Part shown: positions 13,821 to 55,567 of the stretch, one piece after another
How positions within the stretch are numbered: position 1 is the stretch's first letter
Layout of the letters: every line of letters begins with the position of its first letter
Source of the DNA: Torpedo marmorata
Taxonomy: Eukaryota
Reading direction: 5' to 3'
Assembly (NCBI GenBank): GCA_977017645.1
Contig: OZ360240.1
Coordinates: forward strand, 64,294,001-64,355,649
DNA length: 61,649 nt
Translations under genes and position numbers: made by a program
Notes under the pieces: model-generated
Seen by the model: the letters and a program-made list of their open reading frames with translations, nothing else
Told to the model about the DNA's origin: nothing
The model's database searches: none

Positions 13821-14704
13821 AAATTTTTAGGACTAAAAGTTTGTGTTCCAGTACAGTTACAACACCAGCATATACCCAGCAATGTTGAAAATTGTCTAGG
13901 TATGTCCTGCTCCAGAACATAGAGTCTTGATAAAGGGTCCCGACCCAAAACGTTGACTGACCATTTCTACCCATGGATGTTATCTTACCTGCGGAGTTCC
14001 TCCAGCAATTCTTTGCCTGCTCAGAACTGGTTAATTATCAGCATAATGCCTTTATTCAATGGAAGTGTTGTGGACAGTGATAACCCATGGCACTTCCTGG
14101 TTTGACTTTTATCAGAATCACCTGGCTCCAAACATTGCTCTAAACATTGATCTGAACGAATTGCAGTGGTGAGATGGAAGTGACCACCCTCATATCAAGG
14201 AAGCATTTGACCTTGTGTGGTACCAAAGACCCTGATAAAAGCTGGTCAGCAAGCATCATGCAGAAATACTCCAATGCACAGAAGTTGTGGTTGTGATTGA
14301 TGGAGGTCAATCATCCCAGCACCAGTTTCTCCCTGCAGGAGTTCCTTCATGCACTGACCTAGGCCTCTCCATCTTCAGCTACTTCATCCATTGTAAGGTC
14401 AGAGGTGGTGATGTCATTGATTGCACAATGTTCCCTTGCATTCACAATTCCTCAGCAAATGGAGGAGTTACTGCTTTGATTAAGAAATTAGTCATTAATT
14501 TCTTCTATATCACCTTCTGTAAGAGCCGTAGGCTTGGTTACTTACCATAATCGCGGCGTTCCGATGGTCTCAGCGGGTTTCGGAGGAGACACAGAGATTA
14601 GTAGGCCATGCTGGGGCCTCTTTAGTACTCTGCGCATGCGCGGGAGTGCCGACGGGCACATGCGCAGTGGGGAAGTGGTTGGAGCATGCACACTGGGGAA
14701 GTGA

Positions 14705-17546
14705 GTGCAGTATGCACGGTGGAGTATGTGTGGTGGAGTATGTGTGGTGGAGTATGCGTGGTGGAGTATGTGCGGTGGAGTATGCGTGGTGGAGTATGTG
14801 CGGTGGAGTATGCACGGTGGAGTATGCACGGTGGAGTATGCGCGGTGGAGTATGCGTGGTGGAGTATGCGTGGTGGAGTATGAATAGTGGAGTATGAATA
14901 GTGGAGTATGCGTGGTGGAGTATGCGTAGTGGAGTATGCGTAGTGGAGCATGTGCGGTGGAGTATGCACAGTGGAGTATGCGTAGTGGAGTATGCGTAGT
15001 GGAATATACGCTGTGGAGTATGCGTGGTGGAGTATGCGTGGTGGAGTATGCGTGGTGGAGCATGCAAGGTGGAGTATGCGTAGTGGAGTATGCGCGGTGG
15101 AGTATGCGTGGTGGAGTATGCGTGGTGGAGTATGCACGGTGGAGTATGCGCGGTGCAGTATGCGCGGTGGAGCATGTGCGGTGGAGTATGCGTAGTGGAG
15201 CATGCGTAGTGGAGCATGTGCGGTGGAGTATGCGCGGTGGAGTATGTGTGGTGGAGTATGTGTGGTGGAGTATGTGTGGTGGAGTATGCGCGGTGGAGTA
15301 TGCGCGGTGGAGTATGTGTGGTGGAGTATGTGTAGTGGAGTATGCGCGGTGGAGTATGTGTGGTGGAGTATGTGTAGTGGAGTATGCGCGGTGGAGTATG
15401 TGTGGTGGAGTATGTGTAGTGGAGTATGCGCGGTGGAGTATGCGTGGTGGAGTATGCGCGGTGGAGTATGTGTGGTGGAGTATGCGTAGTGGAGTATGCG
15501 CGGTGGAGTATGCGTAGTGGAGCATGTGCGGTGGAGTATGCACAGTGGAGTATGCGTAGTGGAGTATGCGTAGTGGAGTATACGCTGTGGAGTATGCGTG
15601 GTGGAGTATGCGTGGTGGAGTATGCGTGGTGGAGTATACGCTGTGGAGTATGCGTGGTGGAGTATGCGTGGTGGAGTATACGCTGTGGAGTATGCGTGGT
15701 GGAGTATACGCGGTGGAGTATGCGTAGTGGAGCATGTGCGGTGGAGTATGCACAGTGGAGTATGCGTAGTGGAGTATGCGTAGTGAAGTATACGCTGTGG
15801 AGTATGCGTGGTGGAGTATACACGGTGGAGTATGCGTGGTGGAGTATACGCTGTGGAGTATGCGTGGTGGAGTATACACGGTGGAGTATGCGTGGTGGAG
15901 TATACACGGTGGAGTATGCGTAGTGGAGCATGTGCGGTGGAGTATGCGTAGTGGAGTATGCGTGGTGGAGTATGCGCGGTGGAGTATGCGTAGTGGAGCA
16001 TGTGCGGTGGAGAATGCGCGGTGGAGTATGCGTGGTGGAGTATGCGTAGTGGAGTATGCGTAGTGGAGTATGCGTAGTGGAGTATGCGTAGTGGAGTATG
16101 CATGGTGGAGTATGCGTGGTGGAGTATGCGTGGTGGAGTATGCGTGGTGGAGCATGCAAGGTGGAGTATGCGTAGTGGAGTATGCGTAGTGGAGCATGCG
16201 TGGTGGAGTATGCGTGGTGGAGTATGCGTAGTGGAGTATGCGTAGTGGAGTATGCGTAGTGGAGTATGCATGGTGGAGTATGCGTGGTGGAGTATGCGTG
16301 GTGGAGTATGCGTGGTGGAGCATGCAAGGTGGAGTATGCGTAGTGGAGTATGCGTAGTGGAGCATGCGTGGTGGAGTATGCGTGGTGGAGTATGCAAGGT
16401 GGAGCATGCAAGGTGGAGTAGGCGTAGTGGAGTATGCGTGGTGGAGCATGCGTGGTGGAGTATGCGTGGTGGAGTATGCGTGGTGGAGTATGCAAGGTGG
16501 AGCATGCAAGGTGGAGTATGCGTAGTGGAGTATGCGTAGTGGAGCATGCGTGGTGGAGTATGCGTGGTGGAGTATGCAAGGTGGAGCATGCAAGGTGGAG
16601 TATGCGTAGTGGAGTATGCGTAGTGGAGCATGTGTGGTGGAGTATGCGCGGTGGAGTATGCGCGGTGGAGTATGCGTGGTGGAGTATGCGTGGGGGAGTA
16701 TGCGTGGTGGAGTATGCGCGGTGGAGCATGTGCGGTGGAGTATGCGCGGTGGTGTATGCGTGGTGGGGTATGCGTAGTGGAGTATGCGTGGTGGAGTATG
16801 CGTGGTGGAGTATGCGTGGTGGAGTATGCGTCGTGGAGCATGTGCGGTGGAGTATGCACGGTGGAGTAAGCACGGTGGAGTATGCGTGGTGGAGTATGCG
16901 TGGTGGAGTATGCGTCGTGGAGCATGTGCGGTGGAGTATGCACGGTGGAGTAAGCGCGGTGGAGTATGCGTGGTGGAGTATGCATAGTGGAGTATGTGCA
17001 GTGGAGTATGCGCGGTGGAGTATGCGTGGTGGAGCATGCAAGGTGGAGGATGCGTGGTGGAGTATGCGCGGTGGAGTATGCGTGGTGGAGTATGCGCGGT
17101 GGAGTATGCGTAGTGGAGTATGCGTGGTTGAGTATGCGTGGTGGAGCATGCATAGTGGAGTATGCATAGTGGAGTATGCGTGGTGGTGCATGCAAGGTGG
17201 AGTATGCATGGTGGAGTATGCGTGGTGGAGTATGCGTGGTGGAGCATGCGTGGTGGAGTATGCGTGGTGGAGCATGTGCAGTGGAGTATGCGTGGTGGAG
17301 CATGCGTGGTGGAGTATGCGTTGTGGAGCATGTGCAGTGGAGTATGCGTGGTCGAGTATGTGCGGTGGAGTATGCGTGGTCGAGTATGTGCGATGGAGTA
17401 TGCGTGGTTGAGTATGTGCGGTAGAGTATGCATGGTGGATCATGTGCGGTGGAGTATGCGTGGTGGAGCATGTGTGGTGGAATATGCGTGGTGGATTATG
17501 CGTGGTGGAGCAGGCGCGGTGGAGTATGCGCGGTGGAGCAAGCGCA
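14705..17546. repeat. 14-bp minisatellite (consensus GTGGAGTATGCGTG), 203 units
   Basis: 2842 bp = 203 x 14; 14-aa periodicity in all three open minus-strand frames. Confidence 0.97.
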
Positions 17547-17625
17547 AATCGGGGGAGAAGAAGTAGTATAAGAATATGGCGACTTAGAAGAGGGTGAGTG
17601 AGATTGTCATATCTTTCATTGACTG

Positions 17626-17697
17626 TTTAAAGTAACATTTAAAGTAACGTTTAAAGCAACGTTTAAAGCCACGTTTAAAGCAACGTTTAAAGGAACG
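17626..17697. repeat. 12-bp tandem repeat (TTTAAAGNAACG) in the BEL LTR
   Basis: 6 units here versus 4 in the 3' LTR (from ~28558). Confidence 0.85.
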
Positions 17698-18444
17698 TTT
17701 AAATGAGTGTTTGAAGAATCGTTATTAAGCATCGTTATTAAGAATTGTTTATATTTCGTTAAGTAAGATATTTAAGTCATTGAAGATTGCTACAAGTCAT
17801 CGTGTGTAAATAAAGTTTTGAACCGATTGGACATTAGTAAATTAATTGAAACGCGTCAAGAACAAGTTTCTCACCTAGCCTCCAAGTGACTATTTGTTGG
17901 ATTGAAGTCACTATATGTTTAGTCAATGAAAGTTTTATTGTTTAGAGGAGGAAAATTGAAGGAAAGAAGATAGAATAATCTCTCTGTGCTTTGGACTGAT
18001 ATTTAAAATAAAATGACGGCCATCTTGGAGATGCCTCGAGTTGGGGCAGTTTGTAATCCACATCCATCTGCCATGAATAACAGCCAGAGGGGGAGTTAAA
18101 GCTTCAAATTTTATGGTAAAGTGTCCTATAAATACATTGGAGAAACCATTTCTTGAAAATCAGCGATATTATTGACGGATGTTGTGGTGGAAACTCGTTT
18201 GTGAATAGCAGCACATTACAGTCATCTGAAGTGGTAGGCATAAGTCTGTGGACTCCTTCTGTGTATCTTTGGCAAGTTTGAACACAGATTGGATTTGCTG
18301 CTGCTGGTCCATTGGGGACTATTGATTTGGCTAGTGTTGTGTATGCTCGAAGGACAGTGGAACAAGACGAGATAAAATGGCCGCAGCAGCCGCTGATGCA
18401 GCAGCAGCTGACGCAGCAACCACTGATGTTGCTGTATTGAAGAC

Positions 18445-20980
18445 ATGAAGGTTGTGGATATTAAAGAAGAATTGAAGCGACTGAAACTAAATATAAGTGG
18501 AAATAAAAAGGTTCTCATCGCAAGACTGAAGCTGGCAAAGGAAGAAGAGGCGGCTTCTTTTGATGAACAAGAAGACAGCAAAGTGGAAATGGCTGAAATT
18601 GTGTCACCAAATGATGAAGAAAACAAAGAGGATGAAGATGCAAAGGAGGTACAATTCGGATTGGAGAAAGAGGTAAGTAAGAAGACAACATCAGACCTGC
18701 AGGACGAAATACAAGCATGTGACAGTGTCTCAAATGTTGAAAGCAGGAGAAGCAAAAGAAGTTCTTCTGGTTTAAGCTCCAGAGTTTCTCGTACTTCAAG
18801 TTCTGCATCGTCACATACAAAGATTGAAGTTAACTTGGCCGCTCTTCTTGCACGACAAAATCCTCTTAAGGATAAACATGTTTTAGAAGAACAGGAGGAG
18901 GAACTAAGAGAACAGGAGGAGCAGCTAAGGCAGAGACAACAGGAGGAGCAGTTAAGGCAGAGCCAACAGCTAAGGAAGAGACAGGAGCAGCTAAGACAGA
19001 GAAAGGAGCAGCAGGAGCTGGAAACAAATATTGCTATTGCCATGGCTAGAAAGAAGGTACTAGAAGGCTCAATGGTATCTGGTGCTCGGAGTAAATTATC
19101 TAAAGTGTATGGTAATAAAAAGTCATATATTAAAAAAGAGTCACAGGAAAAGAAACCAACCAAAAGGATAGATATTTTAGTACCAGGGGTACAAGACTTC
19201 CAAATACAAGGACAAATCCTTCAAGAGCATAGTGTTATCAAGTCACATGTACCAGTGGTAATATCTGAAGACAAAGCTGCGGCTTGGGTTCGGTCAAACG
19301 ATGCAGCTCCCTTGTTATTTGAGTCAAGCATCAGAAATACAGGAGAAACTACACCAGTGAGGTTTCCAGATATATTACCTGTAACAAGAGGCGGTGAACA
19401 GAGCAATGTATTGTCATCCAAGGGAAGACAAAATGAAATTGCTACATCATTAATTCAGTTACATTCTCTCTCTTCTTTGCCCAAGAAAGAGATACAAACC
19501 TTTGATGGTGATCCACTTCAGTACCAAGCATTCATGAGATCTTTCAAACGCAATATTGAAAATAAATGCCAAGAGCCTGATGAATGTCTTTATTATTTGG
19601 AAATGTTCACAAAGGGACATCCAAGAGAACTTGAAAATAGTTGTCAACATATGTCCTCAGAAAGGGGATTAGACAGAGCTAAGTCTTTACTGGAACAACA
19701 TTTTGGCAACAAGCATCGAATTGCTTTAGCTTATATGGATAAAGCTCTTAAATGGACATCAATAAAACAGAATGATGTAAAAGCTCTACAAGCATATACT
19801 CTCTTTTTAAGAGGATGTTGTAATGCCATGGAAGATATCGATAATATTCATGAGCTTGAAGTGCCTGGTAATATGCGAATCATCTTAGAAAAATTACCTT
19901 ACAAGTTGTGGGATAGATGGAGAAATTTGGCTTGTGATTTACAAGAAAATTACGGTTGAAGCCACCTTAAAGGATATGGTAAATTTTCTTTAATGACAGG
20001 TCTACATTGAAACAGATCCAATATATGGAAATACCAGAGACAATTCAATGGGGAACAAAGATGTAAGGAGGTCTAACTCACGGCCTAGTCCGAAATTGAA
20101 AAGGAGTACTTTTGCTACTAATGTGTCAGTTATAAATAAAGAAAAAGATAAAGTAAATAAGGAAAAGGAAAGTTTGACCAATGAGAAGAGTTGTTTGTTC
20201 TGTAAAGGTGGACATGCTTTGGAAATGTGTTTACGGTTGGAAAACAAGGAACATAATGAGAATATCGCTTTCTTAAAGGAAAATGGAATATGTTTTAGCT
20301 GTCTGTGTAAAGGGCACATCAGTAAAAACTGTAAGAAGCAACTTAACTGTAACATATGCAATTTGAAACATCCTAGAATGTTGCATATCCATCAAAGAAA
20401 CAAGGAATTAGAAAAGGAGCAAACAGAAACAAAGGAAACATCAGAAAACAATGTTATAACCTCGGTTCAGACAGTGTGGATAACTGCAAATTTTCAATAG
20501 TGCCTGTACAAGTCAAGACCAAGAAAGGGGATGCAACAGTACATACATATGCATTTCTAGATCCAGGCAGCACTGCATCTTTTTGCACGGAAGGACTAAT
20601 GAACAAACTTAATATTCAAGGAAGAAGGTCAAGAATTATGTTGAAAACCATGGGACAAGAAAAGGTCGTTGAAACCATCATTGTTTCAGGCTTAGAGGTT
20701 GCTGGATTGGATGACAAAATTTTTTGTGATCTTCCAAGTTTATATACTCAGAAGACTATGCCTGTGCACGAAGGAAACATTCCGCATCAAAATGATTTCC
20801 ATCATTTGTCTTATCTGTGAAAGGTTTATTTACCTGAAGTTAACTCTGAGATAGAAATTCTGATTGGTTCAGATGCACCAAAGGTTTTGGAGCCAGTAGA
20901 AGTAATACGGAGTAGAGGGAATGGACCTTACGCTGTTAGAACCAAGCTTGGTTGGACAATCAATGGACCATTGGAAAGAA
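18445..20980 (+). pseudogene. BEL gag-protease, broken by frameshifts and stops
   Basis: SAP-like N-terminus; LPKKEIQTFDGDPLQYQAF gag motif; CLFCKGGHALEMC, CFSCLCKGHISKNC, CNICNLKHPRMLH knuckles; AFLDPGSTASF protease; [11 protein letters not shown] motif. Confidence 0.88.
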
Positions 20981-21481
20981 ATAATGATATTGCTCAGGAA
21001 CAGTTAGCGATTAATATTAACAGGATTTTGGTTGTGAAAGTTGATGAGTTAAGGGAAGAGCAAAAGACTGTGAATAAGAAAGTCACTTTTGAAGAAAAGA
21101 AAATAGTTCAATGTGAAAATAAATCAAAGGTATTTAAAACAACATTGAAGGAATTATTTTCACCAGAAATGGATGAAAATGAAGTATTAGAAGATGTTGC
21201 AAATAATACGAGTGATTATTCCTGTGTAATTGAATCAGAGGCAGGAATAAAACAAGTGACTGAGAACAAATTTGAAAGTAGATTTTTTAGTTCGGAGGTT
21301 ACAGCAGACAAAGTCAATGAAGAAATGTTGCAATGTGATGATAAAACTGGAGAACATAGAAAATTGTGCTGATGGAATAAATAAGAATGTGAATGATAAT
21401 TTAATGCAATTGAATTCAGAGAACAAAATGTTGAAAGGGGAATTGGAAATATTGGATAATCATGAAAACAGTAAACAGAAA

Positions 21482-21787
21482 GATTTAATTGTAAGTAAAA
21501 TTCGCAAAGTCAGAAAGCGGAAGAAAAGAATAACTGCTGAAGAAATAAATACAGTTATTGAGGGAAGAGATTCAGCATTATCAAGATGTAAAAGGTTGGA
21601 GGAAGAGATTAATATTTTGAAAGAGAACAAGTTATTCGTTAATAACACAAAACAGTTGATTATAGAAAACAATCAAGAATGTAAATTGAATGTTCAGCTA
21701 CTAACAATGCAGAAAGAAAGTGATATTGCATTGCAGAAATGTAACAAGCAAGATGAAGAAATTGAAAAATTTCAAGTTTACCACAGC
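21482..21787 (+). pseudogene. MIPOL1: Captured intronless MIPOL1-like coiled-coil fragment inside the BEL element
   Basis: KRITAEEINTVIEGRDSALSRCKRLEEE...NNTKQLIIENNQE...LLTMQ...EEIEKFQVYHS aligns by eye with recalled human MIPOL1 RITAEEMSALIEERDAALSKCKRLEQE...NNMRHLTAENNQE...LLSMQ...EEIQTLRVYYS. Needs a BLAST check. Confidence 0.78.
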
Positions 21788-22713
21788 AGGGTTGACCAAT
21801 GTATCACATGTGTTATGGACCATGACTGACCATTTGGACTGCGGACGGTCAGCAGGAAGGATGAAGTCTTTTGGAGTATACACTGGGGCCAGGTACTGAA
21901 AGAGTTAACTTCCACAGGACTTGGTGTACCCAGACAGAGAGAGAGACAAGCTGTGGACAAAGATACATTGTTGCACTTTTGGTGTACCCAGACAGAGAGA
22001 GACCAGAGAGAGAGAGACAGACTGTGGACAAGATACATTTGTTGCACTTTTGCAAAAAGCAGGTGTAGATCTCTACAAGAAGCAGACAGTTGTAAGTTGC
22101 AAAGGCTAGAGAACACAGCCAAATCCAGGCGTGTGCATAGTCAGAGAAAAGACTGGCAGAATAGCACATGGCCTCCTGTCTCAGAGAAATTCTGAGAAAA
22201 AGCAACTTCTGTGGAGAACAGGCGTGAGATCAGCGAGACTAGCTGTGAGATTCAAGCATACGCCTAAATCAGTGGTATACTGATCTGGAACTTGCAATCC
22301 TTATGAACGTACCAGAAGGGGACGTCATCAGAGAAGAAAACAGTGTCTCTCTCCAACGTTCATTCAGAAGTACTCCTACCAGACACAGAGCTGAATTTGA
22401 AGCCTGAACTTAGAGAGTGAATTTTGTAGACTGTATTATCCTTTTTTTTGACTGACTTGTTTTTTATGACTGACCTGGGGTTTTTGGGGAAAGTTTTTCT
22501 ATTTTTACATAAGGGTTGGGCACAGACTGTAATGGTCTGGGCTTTACACACACACACACACTCCTTTTAGATAAGAATAGTGTTTATAGACGTTTATAGT
22601 GGGGTTAATTGTTGTGAAATTATATGTTTAATTGTGTTTAATAAATATAAATTTCAATTTTACCCCTTTTGCATTGCGTCTTCTGTCGTTGCTGGTTTGA
22701 TTTTGTAACAAAT

Positions 22714-22738
22714 CGGGGGCTCGTCCTAGGATTTGAAT
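22714..22738 (+). promoter_or_regulatory. Primer binding site, tRNA-Pro
   Basis: CGGGGGCTCGTCCTAGGATTTGAA versus tRNA-Pro complement TGGGGGCTCGTCCGGGATTTGAA, 3 nt after the 5' LTR. Confidence 0.85.
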
Positions 22739-22841
22739 CAAAATCCATCTTGGTAATTGAAGGAATCCCAGTTTGGTTTAAGGCATTCCTTTTGTAAAGC
22801 TAATTAAAAGCTAGTGTGTGTGTAACGCAAAACCAGCAACA

Positions 22842-24056
22842 ATGGATGTCGAACATTTTTTGGAATCACCTGAACCTGATACTTTAAAAAAGGCGAAAAA
22901 GCAACAGTTAGTGGCTATAGCAACAGAGTTGGGCATTGCTTCTGTAAAACCATCTATGAAAAAGTCAGAGATTGGGAGAAAAATAGTCAAATACTATATA
23001 AAAGAAAAAAAGTTTGAGGAGAGCATGTTAGAGCAGTTTCCCAAGGGTAAACCTTCTGAAAACATACAGTTGGAACTAAAGAAATTGGAATTGGAACAAA
23101 AGAAATTAGACACGGAATTGGAACTAAAGAGATATGAGAACGATGAGAGAAATAGGAGATATGAGCTGGAAAAGATGAGGTTGGAAAATGAGAGGAGACA
23201 ACAAGAGCACTAAAATCAAATTCGTCATCCTGCTGAGGGGTTTTTGGCTAGTAGAGAAGTTAGGTTGGTTCCTCCATTTGAGGAGGCAGAAATAGATAAG
23301 TACTTCCAACATTTTGAGAAGGTGGCTGTGAAATTAAAATGGCCACAAGACCAATGGTCTCTTATGTTACAAAGTGTAATAAAAGGAAAAGCTCAGCAAG
23401 CTTATTCTACTCTTACCACGGAGCAAGCTGCTGATTATGAAACGGTGAAAAAGGCTATACTCCAGGCTTATGAGTTAGTTCCAGAGGCTTATAGACAGAA
23501 GTTTAGAAATTTAAAAAGATCAGCAACCCAATCTTATACAGAGTTTGCCTATGAAAAAGTTGTGTGTTTTGACAGGTGGTGCACATCTAAGGCAGTAAAC
23601 AATGATTACAATCAATTGAGAGAATTGATAATAATCGAGGTGATAAAAAGGTGTGTTCCTGAGGATATTAAGGCATACTTAGATGAAAAGGAGGTGAAAA
23701 CTTGGCAAAATTCAGCTAAGTTAGCAGATGAATATGCTTTAACCCACAAGCCTAAGTGGACGTCAGGTAGAATTTTCCAAAAGGTCACTGTGGATAATCA
23801 GAAGCAAGTGGAAAGTAAATTTGGAAGTGGTGTTAAGGAAAGGGATGAAGGAAAGTGGAAAAGGGAAAACAATTCGGGTCCCATTTGCCACTACTGTAGG
23901 AAGGCTGGTCATATGCTAGCAAGCTGTCCAGTGTTGAAAAAGAAGAGAGAAAAGGATGCAACACCTAATGCTTGTATTCAGAGTGAGAAGATGCATACAC
24001 CCAGGAAGGAGATAAATTTACTGACAAAGTTAAAGATGTATTTAAACCTTTTGTGA
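22842..24056 (+). pseudogene. Gmr1 gag (SCAN-like capsid CTD, CCHC knuckle), with internal stop
   Basis: LVPPFEE; PEAYRQKFR...LRELIIIE...AKLADEY; CHYCRKAGHMLASC. Confidence 0.88.
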
Positions 24057-26633
24057 CTGATGGTTTTGTTTCAGTTAAGGCAGGATCAAAACAAGTGCCA
24101 GTGAAAATCTTGCGAGATACTGGAGCTGCTCAGTCACTTGTGTTAGATAGTGTCTTGGAATTTTGAGAAGCTACTGACACCGGTGACATAAATTTAATTA
24201 AAGGAATTGGTGGCGAAGTTGAGTCCATTCCTTTGCACAAAATAGTATTGGACTCAGACTTGGTGGAAGGACCAGTTATAATAGGAGTGAGATCAGAATT
24301 GCCAGTAGAAGGAGTCTCACTGTTGTTAGGCAATGACTTGGCCAAGGGTAAAGTAGTTCCTGCAGTGCGAATGACCACTAAGCCAGTCATTGATAAGTCA
24401 GAGAAAGACTCTGATATTTATCCGGCATGTGCCATAACCAGGGCCATGTCTAAGAAAAATGTCACTGTAGAAAAGGCAGAGGAAAATAACTTGGTAAAAG
24501 AAAAAGACAGTGATAATCAAGAAAACCTGGAAAAGGTTGAGCAATCTCCTATGTTACACCCATCCACTGATAAGACACCTAAAGGCACAGATTTGTCACT
24601 ATCCCGACAGGAGTTAATAGCAAGGCAAAAGGACGATCCTGATCTTGTTGAGGTGAGGGATAAGGTTCTCTATGAAGAGGAGATTAAAAAGGTGCCAGTA
24701 GGTTATTATGAAAAAGATGGGGTGTTGATGAGAAAGTGGAGACCACGTGATGTTCCTGCCAATGAAGAATGGGCAGTAGTGCAGCAGGTTGTGATCCCTA
24801 AAGTATATAGGGATGCAATAATAACTTTGGCTCATAGTACACCCTTAGGTGGTCACCTTGGGGTGAAGAAAACTATAAGGAAGATAATGAAACAATTTTA
24901 TTGGCCCAGTTTGAGAAGGGAGATTGTAAGCTTTTGCCGGGCCTGTCACACTTGTCAGGTGGTGGGTAAACCTAATCAGGGTCCCCCGGTGGCACCCTTC
25001 CAACCTATCCCTGCTTTCAGTGAGCCTTTCTCGAGAGTAATTGTGGACTGTGTTGGCCCATTGCCCAAAACCAAAGCGGGAAATGAGTATTTGTTAACAA
25101 TTATGTGTGCAGCCACCAGATTTCCAGAGGCCATTCCTCTGAGAAACATAAAAGCAAAGTCAATTGTAAAGGCTATGGTAATGTTTTTCACCTTGGTAGG
25201 TTTGGAAGGGAAATTCAATCAGATCAGGGCAGTAATTTCATGTCAGGCGTTTTCCAACAAGTGGTTGATGGACTAGGAGTTAAACAGATTGTATCCTCTG
25301 CGTACCATCCAGAAAGTCAAGGGGCCTTGGAGAGGTTCCATTCGACTTTGAAAACCATGATTAGAACCTATTGTTGTGAGAAGGAAAAGGATTGGGATGA
25401 GGGGGTTCATTTGTTGTTATTTGCAGCGAGGGAGTCTGTCCAAGACTCACTTGGTTTTAGTCCATTCGAGTTAGTTTTCGGACATGAGGTGAGAGGTCCT
25501 TTAAGATTATTAAAAGAACAGTGGATTAATAGTGATGTGCATTTAAATCTGTTAGATTATGTTTCCAAATTTAAGGATCGGTTACATAGGGCTTGTGAGA
25601 TGGCAAAGGAGAATTTAAGGCCACTCAACGGAGAATGAAGGTTTGGTATGATCGAAAGGCGAAGATGAGAACTTTTAAACCTTGTGAGAACGTATTAGTT
25701 CTGTTTCCCATCCATTCAAATCCTCTTAGGGCTAGATTTTCAGGACCCTATAGAGTTAAGTCAAAAATTAATGATGTCACCTATGTCATAGAAACACCTA
25801 ATCGCAGATGAGACACACAGGTCTGTCATGTGAATATGATTGAGCCGTATTTTGAACAGGTGCCTCAAAAAGGGACTGAACATTTACCAGAGGTACTGGT
25901 TATTGATCAGGGTAAGGAGGAGACCGATGAAACCAGTTTCAGAGAGGGTCATGGGACTGTTAATTCTCTGAGTTATGTTGTAGGACAGGGGAAGTTGGCG
26001 CCAGTAGAGGCAAAGGTTGTCGCTATTTCCGAGTTCCCTGTTCCAACTGGTAAGAAAACTCTGAGGAGGTTCCTGGGAATGATTGGCTACTACCGCAAGT
26101 TCTGTAAAAACTTTGCTGATCTTGCGCTCCCTCTCACAAAGTTGCTTAGAAAGAAAGAAAAATTTGTATGGTCTACAGGTTGTCAGGAAGCATTTGTCAA
26201 ATTGAAAACCATGTTATGCCACCAACCTGTGCTTAAGTCACCTAATTTAGAACAGCCGTTTTCTTTAGCCGTGGATGCCAGCGATGAAGCTGTGGGTGCG
26301 GTGCTGTTACAGAAGAAGAACGAAGAGGACATTGACCATCCGGTATCCTACTTCTCGAAGAAGTTCAATGATCATCAAAGGAATTATTCAACTATAGAAA
26401 AAGAGTTGTTAGCTCTTGTGTTGGCTCTACAACACTTTGATGTGTATATCTGTACAGCTCAAAAACCACTCATAGTGTATACTGACCATAATCCATTGGT
26501 TTTTCTTTGTAAAATGAAAAATAAGAATCGACGGTTGTTGAATTGGAGTCTAATTTTGCAAGAATATAATTTGGTAATCACTCATATAAAAGGGAAAGAT
26601 AATGTAATTGCTGATTGTCTTTCTAGATGTTAA
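24057..26633 (+). pseudogene. Gmr1 pol remnant: protease, integrase, RT C-terminal part and RNase H
   Basis: ILRDTGAAQS (~24107); AHSTPLGGHLG...CRACHTC, IVDCVGP, QSDQGSNF, ESQGALERFH; RRFLGMIGYYRKF, AVDASD, IEKELLA, YTDHNPL, ADCLSR; no YxDD motif. Confidence 0.88.
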
Positions 26634-28250
26634 CCTTTATCAATGAAAATAGTTCATATTTTGTATTTGTGGATGAACATTGTAGATTTTGTTTATATTC
26701 TGACACCTCAATTACTTTCCTAAATTTTGTTCTTGCAGACCAAAATTTCCTTTGTGGGTGGGAGGTGTTATGGACCATGACTGACCATTTGGACTGCGGA
26801 CGGTCAGCAGGAAGGATGAAGTCTTTTGGAGTATACACTGGGGCCAGGTACTGAAAGAGTTAACTTCCACAGGACTTGGTGTACCCAGACAGAGAGAGAG
26901 ACAAGCTGTGGACAAAGATACATTGTTGCACTTTTGGTGTACCCAGACAGAGAAAGACCAGAGAGAGAGAGACAGACTGTGGACAAGATACATTTGTTGC
27001 ACTTTTGCAAAAAGCAGGTGTAGATCTCTACAAGATGCAGACAGTTGTAAGTTGCAAAGGCTAGAGAACACAGCCAAATCCAGGCATGTGCATAGTCAGA
27101 GAAAAGACTGGCAGAATAGCACATGGCCTCCTGTCTCAGAGAAATTCTGAGAAAAAGCAACTTCTGTGGAGAACAGGCTTGAGATCAACGAGACTAGCTG
27201 TGAGATTCAAGCATACGCCTAAATCAGTGGTATACTGATCTGAACTCGAAATCCTTATGAACGTACCAGAAGGGGACGTCATCAGAGAAGAAAACAAGTA
27301 TTTGTAAGCATAAACAGTCATTGTCTCTCTCCAACCTTCATTCAGAAGTACTTCTACCAGACACAGAGCTGAATTTGAAGCCTGAACGTAGAGAGTGAAT
27401 TTTGTAGACTGTATTATCCTTTTTTTTGACTGACTTGTTTTTTATGACTGACCTGGGGTTTTTGGGGAAAGTTTTTCCATTTTTACATAAGGGTTGGGCA
27501 CAGACTGTAATGGTCTGGGCTTTACACACACACACACACACCTTTTAGATAAGAATAGTGTTTATAGACGTTTATAGTGGGGTTAATTGTTGTGAAATTA
27601 TATGTTTAATTGTGTTTAATAAATATAAATTTCAATTTTACCCCTTTTGCATTGCGTCTTCTGTCGTTGCTGGTTTGATTTTGTAACACATGATATTTTC
27701 ACTTCAGATCAAGCTATTAATTTCTCGGAAGGAACTGAGACTGAATTGAAAGTTGCAAAATTGGATTTGGAATTTCAGGAAAAGGCAATAGACACCAGAG
27801 TGGTTAAAGAGACTTGTTTATTAAAATCGAGAGGATCAGATAAATATTCAAATTCTGGTTCTAAGAGTTTAAATTCTTCATACGAGAAGTGGAATGCTGA
27901 AGAGAGGAATAAAGTGAAACGACATGCTGAAGTAGTATCTCCTGTTAAATTCAAAAGAAAATCTATCTATTTTGTCTATGGAAGATTTGAGGTTTACTGG
28001 TCGACGTTTTAACTCAAAGATTCTGGAGATAAAAGAACTTTGAAAAATACAAACTGACTTTATTTTGTTGTTGTATACTACACAGGTTACGGACTTTTAT
28101 TGATCCAGAGTTATGGTAAACTCTGGTCTTGAGAAGAAAGAAGAAAGAAGATTGGATATTGTTTGAATGTTATATGGTTATTTTTATTTGTAATTGATTG
28201 TGTAATTATTATTTAAGACATTGCGTCTAATTATAAAAATTAGGGGTCGG

Positions 28251-28825
28251 TGTAAGAGCCGTAGGCTTGGTTACTTACCGTAATCGCGGCATTCCGATGG
28301 TCTCAGCGGGTTTCGGAGGAGACACGGAGATTAGTAGTCCGTGCTGGGCCTATTTAGTACTCTGCGCATGAGCGGGAGTGCCGATGGGCGCATGTGCAGT
28401 GGGGAAGTGGCTGGAGCATGCGCTGTGGGGAAGCGAGTGCAGTATGCGCGGTGGAGTTTGCGCGGTGGAGTATGCGTGAATCGAGGGAGAAGAAGTAGTA
28501 CAAGAATATGGCGACTTAGAAGAGGGCGAGTGAGATCATCATAGCTTTCATTGACCGTTTAAAGTAACGTTTAAAACCACGTTTAAAGCCACGTTTAAAG
28601 GAACGTTTAAAGGAGTGTTTGAAGAATCGTTATTAAGCATCGTTATTAAGAATTGTTTATATTTCGTTAAATAAGATATTTAAGTCATTGAACATTGCTA
28701 CAAGTTATCATGTGTAAATAAAGTTTTGAACCGATTGGACTTGTTAGTAAATTAATTGAAACGCGTCAAGAACAAGTATCTCACCTAGCCTCCAAGTGAC
28801 TATTTGTTGGATTGAAGTCACTATA
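28251..28825 (+). repeat. BEL 3' LTR (575 bp)
   Basis: Copy of the 5' LTR with only three 14-bp units (28437-28478). Confidence 0.92.
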
Positions 28826-28918
28826 CCTTCTTCTCCAAGTAATCAACACTCAATGTAAAACACATAGGAAAGCAGGGGCTTCATCTGCACTGATGCATGA
28901 AGTGGCCATGCTCCTGCC

Positions 28919-29173
28919 TGTAGCGCGATCAATGACCACTCGCAGACACGAAGCAAGTAATCAAAGGCTTTATTAATCAGAAAACCCAGGCATGCTCTAC
29001 ATGCTGCTGGCTCACGTCCAAGGCAGGTATGAGGGAGAAGACTAAGGCTCTCAGCCTTTATTAGGGGATCTTATGGGGAGGGGCAACAGGTACAGAAGGT
29101 GGGCCAGACCGCCCAGCCCAGTGAGTCAGTGAGGACATGCCCAGACATGCCCGCAGTACCGTGTTCCACCACA
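28919..29173 (-). mobile_element. Solo LTR, related in layout to the Mag-like LTRs
   Basis: TG...CA termini; TSD CTGCC (28914-28918, 29174-29178); two minus-strand AATAAA motifs placed as in the 55310 LTR. Confidence 0.8.
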
Positions 29174-32797: not shown

Positions 32798-33412
32798 TAA
32801 ATCCTGCCTGCATGTCCCTTGTATCTGTTAAGCACTTCAAAACTTAATTCACAGCACTTCTGAAATGATAAAATGCAGCAAAACGTAAAGGTCCAAATTC
32901 CGCTGGTGTAAAGGAAATACAGCATTAACTTGAAACACATTGAAAGGACCCTCCTTACATCTCAAGCTCAGCAGAAAGAATTGCCCTCTAATATTCATGA
33001 GCTTCACACCATCGTCATTTTGATTTATTTTAATACCAAGTTTAATAGCCTTGCACAAAAGAAAAACAGAACAGGCATTTAACTGGTAGTTCACTGTGTA
33101 TTTTTATTTCATTGAAGCTGAGGAAAGGATTTCTGATAATATCTGACAAAACAAATTGAAAGATAAGCTTATTCCCACAGAATCTGCTGTGAGTGGAATC
33201 CCAAGGGAGAATGATAGAACATAGAACAAAGAACATGACAGCACACGATGTTGTGCAACCCAATGGAAATCTACTCCACAACAATCTAATCCTTCCCTAC
33301 CTCATACCCATTATTTTTCTTACATCCATCTAAGTTTTTTGAATGTCCCTATTGTACCAGCCACCACCACCACCCCTGACAATGCATTCCAGGCACCCAC
33401 CACTCTTTGTGG

Positions 33413-33540
33413 TGTTATGGACCATGACTGTCCATTTGGACTGCGGACGGTCAGCAGGAAGGATGAATTCTTTTGGAGTACACACTGGGACCAGGTACTG
33501 AAGAGTTAACTTGCCCAGGACTGGGTGTGCTCAGAGAGAG

Positions 33541-33585
<45 letters not shown>

Positions 33586-34312
33586 CTGTGGAAAGATACT
33601 TTGTTGACACTTTTGCAAAAGCAGGTGAAAATCTCTGCAAAAAAAGCATTCAGTTTTGAGTTGCAAGAGGCTGAAGCAACAACACCAAATCCAGGTTTGT
33701 GCATTCCAGCAGAAAAGGCTGGGAGAATCACACATGGCCTCCTTTATCAGCAAAATCCTGAGATAAAGCAACTTTTGTGGAGAACAGGCGTGAGATCAGT
33801 GAGACCGGCTGTGAGATCCAAGTATACGCCTCAATCAAAACTGATTTGGAATCGCAATCATTGTGCACCTACCAAAAGGGAAAGTCATCAGGGAAGAAAA
33901 GCAGGCCAAGCATTCATAATCTTAAACAGTCATTGTCTCTCTGTCCAACGTTCATTAAGAAGTCCTTCGTGCCAGCGCACAGAACTGAATTTGAACCCTG
34001 AACATAGAGAGTGATTTTTGTGGACTGTATTTTTGGGACTGACTTATTTTTATGACTGACCTGGGGTCTTGGGGAAGGTTTTCCATTTTTACATGAGGGT
34101 TGGGCACAGACTGTAATGGTCTGGGCTTTACACACACACACACTCACACACACACACGCACACTCTCTTTTGATAAGAATAGTGTTTATAGACGTTTATA
34201 GTGGGGTTAATTGTTAAGAAATTATATGTTTAATTGTCTTTAATAAATATAAATTTCAATTTTACCCCTTTTGCATTGCGTCTTCTGTTGTTGCTGGTTT
34301 GATTTTGTAACA
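33413..34312 (+). mobile_element. Solo LTR of the Gmr1-like family, inside a minus-strand CR1 3' end
   Basis: TGTTAT...GTAACA; TSD GTGG (33409-33412, 34313-34316). Confidence 0.92.
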
Positions 34313-35844
34313 GTGGAAAAAACTTACCTCTGACGTCTCCCCTGAACTTTCCTCAATTCACCTTGAACAGATGACCTCTGGTATTTGCTACTGTTGCCTG
34401 TCATTTGCTATTGTCATCTTGTGCTGCAGTTAACCATTGAAAATCATCCAAAGAAATTAGCTGCAAAGGTAATTGTCAACCTGAACCAAAAACTGCCAGG
34501 CACAAGCTGGGGAGCACTTGGGTCAGTGCTACAGATTCCTGTAATCGTACACTCAGGATCACGATAGAGGCGTGCTTGAATTCAACTGAGAACTGCAGTG
34601 CGGTGCATCAGTGGAGCCTTGAAGTTTGTTCCATCACCCTGACTACCCCTGCTGACAATTAGTGTTCCCTATCCTCTCCTCACATTGCTCACCTTCTGCA
34701 AAGTCCAGTCAGTCGAGGGAAACCAGCAAATCCCTGTCCACCAAGATCGAGCCAGTTTTCCCTCCCGTCATTTGCATCTGCCTCTGGGGGCACACGTAAA
34801 CAGACCTTGGCAGATGGGTATACTTGAGGCACCAAAATATGCACTTGTGGTCATCGGGAACATCTGCTGCCTGACTTCCTGCTCGATCCAAAAATAAAAA
34901 GGTATCAAATCAATATTCCCTGCTACCTTTGACAAAATTGCTTGGTTTAAACATCTCAATTATTGCAGTTTCCCTACAGATAGCCCAACCACATGAATGA
35001 TGATTGACATGCAACACCACCTCAGTTTCTTTCTCACAGAAGCTGCTTGACCTGCTGAGTATTTCACGGTCATGGAGTTATAGAGAGCCCATTAAGTTCA
35101 CAGCGACTTTCAAGCACACATTATTACACCAACTCCTTCTCTAACCCGCTTTATTATCTCCACATTTTCATCAACACCCCTCCCCCACCCCCCCTCCCCC
35201 ACCCCTCCCCCACCCCACCCCCCTCCCACCCCAGATTCTGCACTCTAGGAGCAATTTGCAGCATCAAATGAACCCAGCAACTTCATGTCTTTGGGGTATG
35301 AGAGGGGAAACCCAAGTGGTCACAGGGGGGAACAGGCAAATTCCACTCACAGACAGCACCAGTGGTCTAGATTGAACCCAGGTCACAGGAGCAAGTCCAG
35401 CACCTTATGTTTTTGTTTCAGGTTTCCTGCATCTGTGGCATTTTCCTTTTACAATTTGTCTCACGCTTGAGACCTACCTCTCTGACATCATGATCAAGAG
35501 ACTCAGAGCAACATTAACATGGTCAACAGGCTGCCAATTCTGGCCATTCTATTTAGACAGTAATCCATCAATAAACAGAAGAGTAAACATCCGTTGTGCT
35601 TTGTTTATTAACGTTCCTCAGATGCATTTAATTTATTCTGCTGGCAAATTTTATCTCTTATTTCTGAGTGATCATTTCCAAAAGTTTTACTTCCTATTCT
35701 TTCATTAAATAACCTGATAGTGTTTCCAGTATTTTTATTTCTTGAGAGGCACAAGGGAAATTCTGAAGAGAATTGTTAACTGATTCATAAGTTGTTTCAA
35801 GGCAGAGTAGAAAGTACAGGAACAGGAGTCAGGGGAGTTAGTGG

Positions 35845-36695
35845 TGTTACAAAATCAAACCAGCAATGACAGAAGATGCAATGCAAAAGGGGTAAAATTG
35901 AAATTTATATTTATTAAAGACAATTAAACATATAATTTCACAACAATTAACCCCACTATAAACATCTATAAACACTATTCTTAGCTAAAGAGTGTGTGTG
36001 TGTATAAAGCCCAGACCATTACAGTCTGTGCCCAACACTCATGTAAAAATGGAAAACCTTCCCCAAAACCCCCAGGTCAGTCATAAAAATAAGTCAGTCC
36101 CAAAAATACAGTCCACAAAAATCACTCTCTATGTTCAGGGTCAAAATTCAGCTCTGCGCGCTGGCATGAAGGACTTCTTAATGAACGTTGGAGAGAGAGA
36201 CAATGACTGTTTAAGCTTACGAATGCTTGGCCTGCTTTTCTTCCCTGATGACTTTCCCTTTTGGTAGGTGCACGAGGATTGCGATTCCAAATCAGTTTTG
36301 ATTGAGGCATATACTTGGATCTCACAGCCTGTCTCGCTGATCTCACGCCTGTTCTCCACGAAAGTTGCTTTATCTCAGGATTTTGCTGATACAGGAGGCC
36401 ATGTGCTATTCTCCCAGCCTTTTCCGCTGGAATGCACAAGCCTGGATTTGGTGTTGTTGCTTCAGCCTCTTGCAACTCAAAACTGGATGCTTTTTGCAGA
36501 GGTTTGCACCTGCTTTTGCAAAAGTGTAACAAAGTACCTTTCCACAGCCTGTCTCTCTCTCTGTGTCTCTCTCTGAGCACAACCAGTCCTGGGCAAGTTA
36601 ACTCTTTCAATACCTGGTCTCAGTGTGTACTCCAAAAGACTTCATCCTTCCTGCTGACCATCCGCATTCAAAATGGTCAGTCATGGTCCATAACA
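35845..36695 (-). mobile_element. Solo LTR of the Gmr1-like family
   Basis: TGTTAC...ATAACA; TSD GTGG (35841-35844, 36696-36699). Confidence 0.92.
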
Positions 36696-36813
36696 GTGGA
36701 CAAAGGCATTGGGCACATTGAAGTCCGGTGGGGCGGTTAACGTGAAACACTTAGAATATTGGGATACAGGGAAAGCAGATTATCTTTCAGCAAAGCGAAG
36801 GTCAGCTGTCAAT

Positions 36814-39501: not shown

Positions 39502-42310
39502 AAATAAATGATTCTTTCAAAGATTTTTATTTGAATTTATATACATCTCAAGCCGATAAAGATGACTCTAAAATTAACAAATTTTTATCCAAAATTAAGA
39601 TGCCCAGGTTAGATACACTTAGTAAAGAATCTTTAGATTCACCATTTACGATGAGGGAAGTCAATGAGGTTCTTAGTTCTTTAACAAGTGGGAAATCTCC
39701 GGGGGAGGATGGTTTCCCATCAGAATTTTATAAGAAATTTAAGGACTTATTGATACCTCCTTATATGGAGGTGTTAAAACAAATAACGGAAACCCATTCT
39801 CTACCGGAATCCTTCTCAAATGCATTATTAACAGTTATACCAAAAAAAGATAGAGACTTGTTGAAATAGACCAATATCGTTGTTAAATGTGGACTATAAA
39901 ATAATGGCGAAAATTTTAGCAAATAGATTTACCAGATTTAGTCCATGTAGATCAAGCAGGCTTTATTAGAAACAGATATTCAAATGATAATATCGCTTGA
40001 TTAATTAGTCTAATAAACGTGGCACAAAAAAGAGAAGAACTGTCATTAGTATTAACATTAGATGCCGAAAAGGCTTTTGATAGATTAAAGTGGAATTATG
40101 TATTTAAGGTACTGGAAAAATTCGGTTTTGGAAATACATTTATTAATTGGATTAAAACTATATATAAAGAACCGTCTGCTAGAGTGGTCACAAATGGACA
40201 AATATCTTCAAAATTTTCCTTAACTAGGTCTACTAGACAAGGTTGTCCTTTATCGCCAGCATTGTTTATTTTAGCAATAGAACCTTTAGCCGTATTAATT
40301 AGACAAGATATTAAGATTGCAGGTATTAAAGTTGGTAATGAAGAACACAAAATTAGTTTATTTGCAGATGACGTATTGATATATATGACAAAACCTATTA
40401 GTTCTCTAACACAATTGTCTGTTTTATTGAAGGAATATGGGGAAATATCTGGTTATAAGATTAACTCGGATAAAAGTGAAATTATGCCTTTAACACAAGG
40501 GGACTATAGTGATTGTAAAGAAATTACACAATTTAAATGGTCAAAGGAAGGAATTAAATATTTGGGAATAAAGATTGATACAAAATTAGCCAATTTATAT
40601 AAATTAAATTATTTACCATTATTTATGAAAATTAAAAAAGATTTAGAAAGTTGGAAGGATTTACCTATAACTTTAATAGGAAGGATAAACTGTATTAAAA
40701 TGAATGTTTTTCTAAGAATTCAGTATCTTTTTCAATCAATTCCTTATGAAATTCTTCAGAAATTCTTTAAAGATTTAAATTTTATTATTAGGAAGTTTTT
40801 GTGGAAAGGAAAGTTGGCTAGAGTAGGTATGGAGAAATTAACCTGGAATTATGAAATGGGTGGTCTACAACTTCCTAATTTTCAATATTACTATTAAGCA
40901 GCCCAACTAAAATTTATTAAAGAACTGTTTGATTTAGGGAAACTCTCTGCTTGGATTAGAATATAATTAAATAACATAGGAGAGGATTTGAAAGAAGAAG
41001 TCATTTATAAATGGAATTCTAAATTATTATTAACTAAAGGGAAAAATTCTCCTATTTTTAGGCATTTGTTAGAAATGTGGAATAGAGTGGATAGAGAAAT
41101 AGGAGCGAAAGGGTCAATCTCTCGAAGAATGCCTCTGTATCAAAATAATCCTATCCCATTTACTGTTGATAATCAATTATTTAAAATTTGGTTCCAAAAG
41201 GGAATTAAGGAAATAAATGATTGTTTTGAAGCTGGTAAATTTATTACGTTTCAGAGAATGAAAGATAAGTTTAGTGTAGCAAATAATACAATCTTTGCTT
41301 ACTATCAAATTAGGGCATTTTTAGTTGAAAGGTTGGGTCATGGTTTGACCTTACCAAGACAGACTGAATTGGAATTATTAGTTACTAATGGAGGTGTGCC
41401 TAAATTTATTTCTCAAATGTATAGATTGTTACAGAGGAAATTTCCTAAATCAGGAATTCATAAATCAAGATTAAATTGGGAAAAAGATTTGAATGTAACA
41501 ATAGATGAAGAACACTGGAAAAAATTATGTAAACAAAGTATGACGAAGATTATTAATGTTAGATACAGATTGGTGCAATATAATTTTTTTCATCAATTGT
41601 ATTTAACACCTAAAAGACTAAAGAAATTTAATCCGACGTTATCTGGTTTATGTTTTAGATGTAATAGTGAGGAAGGTTCTTTTGTACACTCCACATGGTT
41701 ATGTCCAAAAGTGTATGATTTCTGGTTGAAGGTTAAAAAGTTTTTGGATAGGGTATTGGGAGTTACACTCCCAATGGATCCTATGATATTTTTGTTTGGA
41801 GATATTGAAGGAACCAGTGTTAAAATGAAATTAAATATGTATCAGACAGAATTTTTACGTATTGCTTTAGCCGTTTCTAAGAAATGTATTGCCATTACAT
41901 GGAAGTCGGATGTAGATTTAGGGTTGGAAAGATGGCATGCAGAATTGCGTTCATGTATACCACTCGAAAAAATTACTTATAATTTACGTGGTAAATATTA
42001 TTTCTTTTTGAATGTATGGAGCCCATATATAAAAACTGTTGGTTTAAGGATTTGAAGATCTCCGGATATCAGATCTGATTGGCGAACCTGTGTTCCACAA
42101 TAAAATTAGTTTATAGTTGTTCTTTTTTAGAGTGACATTCTCCTTACTTTATCTTTTTCTTCTTCTTTCTTTCTTTTCGGGAGGGTTAGGGAGGGGAGGG
42201 AGGGAGGGAGGGGGGGGTGAAAATGTATCACATGTAATCTGATAAATTTGCATTTTAAACTATGTACTGTGTGATTAAAAAATTTTAAATAAAATATTTT
42301 TTTAAAAAAG
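39502..42310 (+). mobile_element. 5'-truncated L1-clade LINE (ORF2 RT and C-terminal Cys region, 3' UTR), with stops
   Basis: GKSPGEDGF, LDAEKAFDR, TRQGCPLSP, LFADD, IKYLGI, CFRC...H....C; G-rich 3' UTR, AATAAA and A-rich tail. Confidence 0.93.
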
Positions 42311-52180: not shown

Positions 52181-52414
52181 TGATGAGCCCATCAATAACT
52201 CCAAAAGACTAGAAGTTGCACAAGAACTGAAAGGCTTTTATTAGCAAAAGAATGGAGCTACATTCGTGCTGATGATCTGTCCCGGACTGGGGGAGGAGCA
52301 GTGGCACAATGGCCTTTATTCAGGGGGTCTGTGGGAGGAGCCACCGGGACAGTCAGCAGGGGCATGTCCAGACTTATCACCCAGCCCACAATCCATACAC
52401 AGTGGTTTACCACA
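52181..52414 (-). mobile_element. Solo LTR of the Mag-like family
   Basis: Reverse complement of 55310-55544; TSD ATATC (52176-52180, 52415-52419). Confidence 0.93.
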
Positions 52415-53799: not shown

Positions 53800-55567
53800 T
53801 CATTCATGTCCTTTAAAAAACAATCTGAATTTTCCAGCAATCAACCGTACAGTGTGGCAAAAATAGATAAAGCCAAAATGGTGGCATTAGGGAAATGTAT
53901 CTATACAATGATATTGATGATGAGTTTATTGTCATACACATTATACAATCTACGTATACACTGGAAGTCTTACTTGCTGCAGCTGAACAGGTATTTTGTA
54001 AGAAAAACTACAAAAACAACTCAAAAATAACTATTCTAGTGTACTTAATTGAATTAAAGAGACAAATAAATACAAAATAGATATTTTAGGTTGTTTTGTT
54101 ATTGCACCGGATAAACTTGTCGTTTAATGGAATTCCTAACTTGGAGTAGCTGCAGCAGTGAACAAAATACAACTCATGAGGTAGGAATATTTTTCCTGTG
54201 AGATCAGCAGTTCGACCTTCCTTACATCAGTCTATGGTGAATTTCCTCTCCGGCACCACGCACAGTCTTCGGCATATGCGATCCTGTTACTCATTGAGTG
54301 TAGCCATGACGGATCTCGCCACATTGTGGGCCAGAATGGCAGACTCAGTCCTTCACAATGGGCACGTTTGCTCACTGAGAAATGCACTGAATAGTAAATG
54401 TGTGCCTCACAGATCAAAGAGAAGGAAGGCTGACATTTATACATGAGTTAATTTGAAGCTATCTGACCTTGCTGCGCAGGTTAAAGCAGCAACTACTTTG
54501 CACGCAGATAGACGTCACAAACAGAAACAGGATCAGCTCACCAGCACATCAGCCACCCCACCAGAGGCCTCAATGCCCTCGACCATTGCTACACAACCAC
54601 GAAAAGTGCCTCTGCTCTGTCCCACACCCACATTTTATTGGATAAGACTACCAGTCAATGCTACTCCTACCTGCCGATAAGCAGAAGCTGTGATGTGTGC
54701 ACCAGGTAGTAAGTCATAGAACATATAGAACATAGAACATTACAGCACAGTACAGGACCTTCAGCCCTCAATGTTGTGCCGACCTATATATTCCTACAAA
54801 AAAATACTAAACCCATCCAACCTCGTAACCTTCTATTTTTCTTTCATCCATGTCTCTTAAATGCCCCCAATGTTTCAGCCTCCACCACCATCCCTGGCAA
54901 GGCATTCCAGGCGCCACAACTCTCTGTGTAAAAAACTTACCCGTAATGTCTACCCTAAACTTTCCTCCCTTCACTTTGTAGAGATGTCCCCTGGTGTTTG
55001 CTACTCCTGCCCTGGGAAAAGGCGCTGGCTGTCCACTTTATCTATGCCTCTCAGAATCTTGTAGACCTCTATCTGTCTGCCTTATGGTAGACAAAAATTA
55101 AAGAATTTCATGTATGTTACATTCTAAATGTAGTATTACGTGACAATAATGGAACCTTTACCTTTACCTTAAATCTCCTCTCATCCTTTTTCTCTCCAAA
55201 AAGAAAAATCCCAACTCTGCTAACCTTGCCTCATAAGACTTATTTTCCAATCCAGGCAACATCCTGTTAAATCTCCTCTGCACCCTCTCCATAGCTTCCA
55301 CATCCTTCCTGTGGTAAACCACTTTGTAGAGGTTGTGGGCTGGGTGATATGTCTGGACATGCCCTCTGCTGACTGTCCTGGTGGCTCCTCCCACAGACTC
55401 CCCGAATAAAGACGATTGTGCCACCTCTCCTCCCCCAGTCTGGGACAGATTACCAGCACGGATGTAGCTCCATTCTTTTGCTAATAAAAGCCTTTCAGTT
55501 CAAGTACAACTTCTAGTCTTTTGAAGTTATTGATGGGCTCATCAATTTTATTAACAAAATCGTAAGC

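Follow-up and report, generated by a model that had tools for sequence, protein, structure and literature searches.

Pseudogenes derived from circular RNA (circRNA) are known from the mouse, in which circRFWD2 is represented by 33 high-confidence copies formed by a mechanism termed 'mysterious' (PMC4897178). LTR-mediated retroposition by template switching has been described by Tan et al., whose main text includes Pao/BEL elements (BATUMI, BEL18_AG), two-gene chimeras and in-frame ORFs (PMC5131818), and the maize LTR element Bs1 is presented as carrying parts of three host genes in one ORF (PMC13317346, PMC5131818). Among cartilaginous fishes, a recent preprint puts MIPOL1 at the head of its list of most-retrocopied parent genes; its main text relates the number of retrocopies to germline expression and non-LTR elements (bioRxiv 10.64898/2026.06.26.734816). 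Here we analysed a stretch of 61,649 nt from Torpedo marmorata (assembly GCA_977017645.1, contig OZ360240.1, positions 64,294,001 to 64,355,649), hereafter the window. Very probably, it holds a member of a BEL/Pao family in which pol has been replaced by MIPOL1 exons in the order D-E-F followed by A-B(-C), likely copied from a circRNA, together with spliced exons of Elongin A (ELOA), the whole likely being moved in trans by pol-bearing sister elements.

The BEL/Pao element of the window spans 14518–28825 and is flanked by the target-site duplication (TSD) CCTTC (Table 1). Its membership in BEL/Pao is indicated by paired LTRs, a 5-bp TSD, a polypurine tract and a BEL-type gag (PF03564, DUF1759, above the cut-off); the protease match was weak (E 0.007), and DUF1758 was slightly below the cut-off in a relative. 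With the tandem array excluded, the 5' and 3' LTRs were identical at 167/181 and 329/345 positions. Growth of tandem arrays within LTRs was also observed in other copies (e.g. L008, L019). No BEL reverse transcriptase (RT), RNase H or integrase, which an autonomous BEL/Pao element has of its own, was found within 14500–29000 of the window, as had been claimed in the original prediction, which was made from the sequence alone. The window element is thus a non-autonomous BEL/Pao derivative with host cargo in place of pol. A stretch of ∼160 nt from the integrase end, kept in most copies, has been deleted from this one.

Table 1. Features of the BEL/Pao element and its host-derived cargo, in window coordinates.
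Feature	Position	Strand	Remarks
BEL 5' TSD CCTTC	14513..14517	+	identical 5 bases at 28826-28830
BEL 5' LTR	14518..17915	+	inflated by a ~3-kb array of a 14-bp tandem unit at about 14592-17540
BEL gag: SAP, DUF1759, Cys/His knuckles	18427..20500	+	window copy disrupted by one stop and frameshifts
BEL aspartic protease	20377..21061	+	end set where similarity to pol-bearing sisters stops
Linker, non-BEL	21062..21463	+	not present in pol-bearing sisters
MIPOL1 exon D, nt 45-171	21464..21586	+	host C40:64492683-64492513, 85.8% identity
MIPOL1 exon E, 3 nt less than host exon	21587..21691	+	host C40:64463599-64463492, 82.2% identity
MIPOL1 exon F, end exactly at donor	21692..21786	+	host C40:64385806-64385712, 87.0% identity
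MIPOL1 exon A, first part	21787..21810	+	host C40:64591881; F lies 206 kb downstream in the gene
Nested Gypsy element	21811..27688	+	SCAN gag, integrase before RNase H, TSD CATG; no relation to cargo
MIPOL1 exon A nt 30-74 and exon B nt 18-90	27689..27802	+	80% and 87.7% identity
Elongin A (ELOA) exon remnants	27802..28021	+	remnants 27802-27956 and 27966-28021; host C41:38994689-38994846 (81%), 39005556-39005611 (89%)
BEL 3' region and polypurine tract	28024..28250	+	comparison with other copies
BEL 3' LTR	28251..28825	+	LTR self-comparison
BEL 3' TSD CCTTC	28826..28830	+	repeat of 14513-14517

The original prediction had placed the BEL 3' LTR immediately behind the cargo. That sequence is actually the 5' LTR of the nested SCAN-gag Gypsy element, behind which both the BEL element and its cargo resume. 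The Gypsy LTR pair was 95.8% identical in a self-comparison of the window and encloses SCAN gag, a zinc knuckle, integrase and RNase H; we take the element to be Gmr1-like. It was not found at the same cargo site in most copies of the BEL family. Two copies (L013, L020) have the same Gypsy family inserted near the cargo junction; a Gypsy insertion hotspot at CATG was considered but not supported, as the flanks across all sampled loci show no CATG preference. Elsewhere in the window we observed further LTRs of the SCAN-gag Gypsy family (879–1761, 33412–34312 and 35841–36699), another Gypsy-type LTR element at 55517–59461 (LTRs at about 55310–55547 and 59540–59776, 93%) with a related LTR on the opposite strand at 52181–52414, and broken ORFs of non-LTR (LINE) reverse transcriptase at 39504–42055.

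Identification of the cargo rests on protein and host-exon comparisons. In a search against longer proteins, 21380–21799 matched MIPOL1-type proteins only (61 matches among 1097 candidates); all 61 carry the same two precomputed Pfam domains, and each one that is named is MIPOL1. The best match was from Narcine bancroftii (70% identity, E 1.9e-33), with mammals at 33–53%. A search with the cargo among proteins of near length gave zero matches among 65 candidates, Pfam and PDB searches on the window ORF gave nothing useful, and a search of representative proteins gave 43 matches, all without names. The MIPOL1 likeness proposed in the original prediction was therefore borne out, as was its view that the span covers several MIPOL1 exons with the match stopping near an exon end: exons D, E and F follow one another without introns and the match stops exactly at the F donor. 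The A-rich drift that it described is likewise evident (A fraction 0.416 in the host exons, 0.411 in basal copies and 0.467 in the window), derived copies in general having an A content of ∼0.47 vs ∼0.41 in the host and basal copies. What it had missed is the cargo from 21787 onward, comprising MIPOL1 exons A and B and then Elongin A; the second MIPOL1 match, directly behind the Gypsy element, represents a more N-terminal region of the protein.

The host gene was examined in a 400-kb region of contig C40 (64200001–64600000), its exons being named A to G. A part of MIPOL1 missing from the cargo, used as a query, had two matches in the genome, both on C40. The host exons match the Narcine protein at 86–96%, are all bounded by AG/GT and occur as a single copy each in the 400 kb, with exons A to F totalling 780 nt. 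The acceptor of exon A is a tandem NAGNAG (C40:64591884–64591878), and the captured junction corresponds to the first AG. The MIPOL1 gene itself harbours five copies of the element bearing its exons, four of them in gene orientation.

The order of the cargo departs from that of the gene. Part of D, then E and F, are followed by parts of the upstream exons A and B, all at 80–88% identity to the host, and the donor end of F is joined base-exactly to the acceptor start of A at 21786/21787, in phase and with the reading frame preserved; the exon A and B remnants are separated by an 81-nt in-frame deletion. Genome-wide, a degenerate pattern for the drifted form of this junction had 5954 + 6147 = 12,101 exact matches and the host-identical 22-nt junction had 558 matches at ≤1 mismatch (control 0 for each), while the normal F-G junction had 0 matches at one mismatch. 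The figure of 12,101 is a floor, since the degenerate pattern recovers only 4/5 copies in the MIPOL1 region and 18/29 in another sample. At 30 loci picked by the linker, with the junction not used, the F end was found in 20 and was directly followed by the start of A in all 20; the end of B was followed by the start of C in 15/17. Exons Z (upstream) and G (downstream) were not seen in any of the sets sampled. The start of A and the intron that follows F agree by chance at 17/40 positions, which makes some of the identity beyond the junction undiagnostic; in 80 copies, a median of 28 of the 40 positions agreed with A, 19 with this intron and 9 with exon G. Contig sequences aligned to host exon F have loose ends at the F end that read exon A. 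One copy (C42:9563985–9564965) contains two adjoining D-E-F matches 405 bp apart, which would reflect either a duplication within the copy or repeated passage around the circle.

Non-colinear exon joins arise most commonly by back-splicing. The junction is exact at donor and acceptor, only exons A to F are present and there is no poly(A) tail, all of which are features of circRNA retrocopies; because the exons are joined tail to head exactly at their splice sites, the captured template was, as read from the genomic DNA, most likely a circular RNA of MIPOL1. The original prediction of a captured processed MIPOL1 transcript holds as far as spliced MIPOL1 is concerned; an ordinary processed mRNA, however, is not what was captured, given the non-colinear order with its exact F-donor/A-acceptor join. 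Non-colinear junctions can have other origins (Dong et al., PMC4897178), and a linear transcript produced by trans-splicing, exon repetition or a since-lost A-F tandem duplication, if captured by the BEL element, would leave an identical junction that DNA alone cannot separate from that of a circle. We consider such a transcript an unlikely source, as the host locus has each exon once, no exon beyond A-F occurs in any sampled copy, and human MIPOL1 is a listed circRNA host gene, in listings that do not give the exons (PMC8284075, PMC8783515). Several template switches and internal deletions are evident in the element, and a jump of the reverse transcriptase between or within linear MIPOL1 mRNAs could in principle have landed by chance at the end of F and the start of A. 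This is very improbable, however, for a join that is base-exact at both splice sites and has a host-identical stretch of 22 nt in 558 copies. AG is all that the end of F and the end of the exon preceding A have in common (judged by eye), and every other switch point falls within an exon (D48, C at about 17, ELOA in mid-exon). A short common run was seen at the derived 3' return to BEL, and no microhomology was resolved at the C-to-ELOA switch.

Less-drifted, basal copies were sampled at 30 loci by the host-identical junction and at 30 by linker DNA. Their cargo reads D(48)-E-F followed by A-B-C (about 17 nt), the closest copies being ∼91–98% identical to the host exons. Elongin A stands after C (PDB 8oev_M, E 3.8e-17 and 2e-33; Pfam PF06881, E 1.9e-14) and consists of five spliced host exons from contig C41, in normal order and at 88–96% identity. 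LTR pairs were found in 4/11 basal elements, with 87–93% identity. A second exon-split Elongin A-family match, at C25:175318134–175337048 (L246, L247), is without a match to the cargo and is possibly a paralogue.

Ahead of exon D lies the linker, 530–670 nt long in basal copies and about 400 nt in the window. Its source was not found by protein search, in the Atlas or PDB, by DNA and protein searches of the genome itself, or in the 130-kb ELOA and 400-kb MIPOL1 regions; the linker is possibly a third captured RNA. A candidate source on C22 proved to be an element copy split by an insertion. The linker was also considered as the worn remains of another turn around the MIPOL1 circle. Only a weak hint of exon B was obtained (z 4.1 at the DNA level, 0/500 codon shuffles, one of 28 tests; exon D z 2.9), with no profile-HMM support, and this reading was dropped because in less-drifted copies the linker stands out as a separate sequence.

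The cargo-bearing family comprises at least 12,000 copies in the genome. At about 5.5 kb each, 12,101 copies may make up ∼1% of the 6.2-Gb genome. Of the distinct junction loci on C1, the first 40 all had protease and linker upstream, and 38 of them had the A/B block. LTR pairs of ≥450 nt were obtained for 20 copies, 3 of them without the start motif, and pair identity was 86–100% except for one mismatched pair at 72%; most family LTRs end in TATA or TAATA, not CA. An exact 5-bp TSD was found in 12 of 17 testable copies, one with a single mismatch in 3 and none in 2 (control 0). The paired LTRs and 5-bp TSDs show mobility that was both long and recent. Three public contig sets from three organisms cover the family end to end. 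Five junction copies spaced every 4,964 bp at C1:1498494–1518375 (L078) form a head-to-tail array with LTRs in common.

These counts also bear on a reading in which the MIPOL1 stretch was added later to a single dead BEL copy as a LINE-type retrocopy, or resembles MIPOL1 only as any coiled coil might. An A-rich coiled coil and the empty near-length search would fit it, but it is refuted by the E value of the longer-protein search, by DNA identity of 82–98% to the host exons and by thousands of copies that share the BEL setting yet have separate LTRs and a separate TSD. The cargo itself has neither poly(A) nor a TSD; we give this reading almost no credence. The original prediction, which had proposed a genome-wide copy count and named a later retrocopy as the alternative to transduction, is supported in its claim that spliced MIPOL1 travels in a non-autonomous BEL family of the gag-pro-cargo type, and the cargo is not confined to a single locus.

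A pattern of protease followed by pol had 1,363 matches in the genome. A relative on C40 encodes, in this order, RT, Pao peptidase A17, an integrase zinc finger and DUF5641, so that a pol-bearing partner with common LTR and gag-pro and the order PR-RT-RH-IN is present. Pieces of BEL pol were detected in 14–19 of 20 sisters examined, vs 0/40 derived and 0/13 basal cargo stretches. Several sisters and cargo copies are alike over LTR, leader and gag-pro (≤93–95% in gag-pro, 84–93% in LTRs); the similarity ends after the protease and returns at the integrase end, ∼3.19 kb of pol being replaced by ∼1.11 kb in derived copies. The sisters are likely the helpers that move the cargo family in trans. 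A midpoint-rooted tree was built from 1 kb of gag-pro, for which 63/81 rows had sufficient length and 60 were distinct. In it, the basal cargo copies form a clade whose sister group is one pol lineage (98/83); the derived carriers have a different backbone, and 7 pol rows fall within their group (100/99). This topology points to a likely exchange of backbones between carriers and helpers.

Selection was assessed by comparing shared variants with singletons in 80 copies, taken as two sets of 40 within the initial 20 Mb of a single contig and chosen by the junction pattern. Without CpG sites, shared-variant dN/dS across the 80 copies was 0.34 in the gag core and 0.45 in the protease; both are constrained. 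For the cargo, the first 40 copies gave 0.50 for shared variants vs 1.46 for singletons (p=0.0006), a signal that was gone in the second 40 (0.87, p=0.39); pooled values were 0.78–1.02, and 1.02 without CpG sites. Host and copies compared directly gave dS 0.27 and dN 0.21 (ratio 0.78, 0.45–1.54). Purifying selection on the cargo protein was thus not reproduced between the two sets.

The reading frame behaves differently from the residues. Large deletions between basal and derived copies (285, 24, 120, 81 and 195 nt) are all multiples of 3 against at least 2/3 basal comparators, and indels occurring in ≥4 copies comprised 0 frameshifts and 1 in-frame change in the cargo, vs 11 and 1 over a 300-nt non-coding stretch at the 3' side (2 and 1 in the linker; 2 and 1 in the tail). 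At least 1000 open codons upstream of the junction were present in only 6/80 copies, and one stop inside the cargo is common to 6/80. Subfamilies have lost parts of the cargo, with a 45-nt deletion in 9/40 copies and many more deletions in basal copies. The frame looks protected through the cargo while the cargo residues drift. A host-derived extension working as a MIPOL1 coiled-coil domain fused to Gag-Pro and aiding the spread of the element would accord with the first 40 copies, with a frame that survives five deletions and with the absence of shared frameshifts; it is nevertheless doubtful, in view of the second 40 copies, the pooled and host comparisons, and the large parts of the cargo deleted in subfamilies. 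It is a similarly speculative suggestion that the fused MIPOL1 coiled coil and Elongin A pieces gave the pol-less family an edge over its helpers (∼12,000 vs ∼1,400 pattern matches), or that its transcripts supply small RNAs against MIPOL1 and ELOA. The frame may instead be kept open through the cargo because the element still needs its own Gag-Pro, the open frame likely serving RNA stability or translation-coupled packaging.

Under the circRNA reading that we favour, host RNAs would have been co-packaged in a BEL particle, namely a 780-nt circle of exons A-F, an ELOA mRNA and a third RNA. The reverse transcriptase would have switched onto them, crossed the back-splice junction while copying 586/780 nt of the circle, and switched back to BEL near the integrase end. 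The cargo block may then have been transferred to newer gag-pro/LTR backbones through recombination with helpers and shortened by in-frame deletions. The pattern of template switching in LTR elements is seen here, with host RNA in place of internal sequence and discontinuous halves of the element on either side.

Reverse transcription of circRNA into genomes was left open in the mouse study (PMC4897178), and this family offers a concrete route in which all components are visible, from the parent gene and an exact junction of the back-splice type to the carrier, its helper and the points of switching, along with copies graded from near-host to eroded. The family would also be a fossil record of germline circRNA in cartilaginous fish. 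The MIPOL1 retrocopy count of the preprint likely reflects the same or a related family, and the top rank of this gene is then likely due to one capture followed by LTR amplification, not to repeated mRNA retroposition; the main text of the preprint makes no mention of a BEL carrier, a back-splice junction or ELOA (bioRxiv 10.64898/2026.06.26.734816). If so, other parent genes with unexpectedly high ranks should have carriers of this sort. SUDS3, SDF2L1, SLU7 and ZNF276 are also top-ranked there and are candidate LTR-borne cargos.

A literature search, mostly without subscription journals and with Repbase and Dfam outside its scope, found no description of this family. It resembles BEL/Pao (Belpaoviridae) in its DUF1759 gag, protease and 5-bp TSD, and its pol-bearing sisters have the usual BEL/Pao set of RT, Pao peptidase A17, integrase and DUF5641, but unlike in BEL/Pao, host cargo replaces RT, RNase H and integrase. 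Bs1 is a low-copy element. It likewise fuses host gene segments within an LTR element; Bs1, however, is from a plant, and the accounts cited above describe no back-spliced junction in it. The retrocopies of Tan et al. share the replacement of internal LTR-element sequence by host RNA, but those in the main text are single and young and the term 'circ' has 0 occurrences there, whereas the family described here exceeds 10,000 copies and has persisted across helper backbones (PMC5131818). Closest are the mouse circRFWD2 pseudogenes, with a reversed exon-exon junction, no poly(A) and flanking LTR sequence; their 33 copies (PMC4897178) are outnumbered by those of the present family (at least 12,000) by more than two orders of magnitude, and here the circle-type piece lies in-frame within a gag-pro BEL family that has helpers, visible switch points, TSDs and a second host gene. 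Both kinds of event, circRNA-derived pseudogenes and Bs1-like multi-gene capture, are already known, and the present family is an extreme case of them in scale and completeness.
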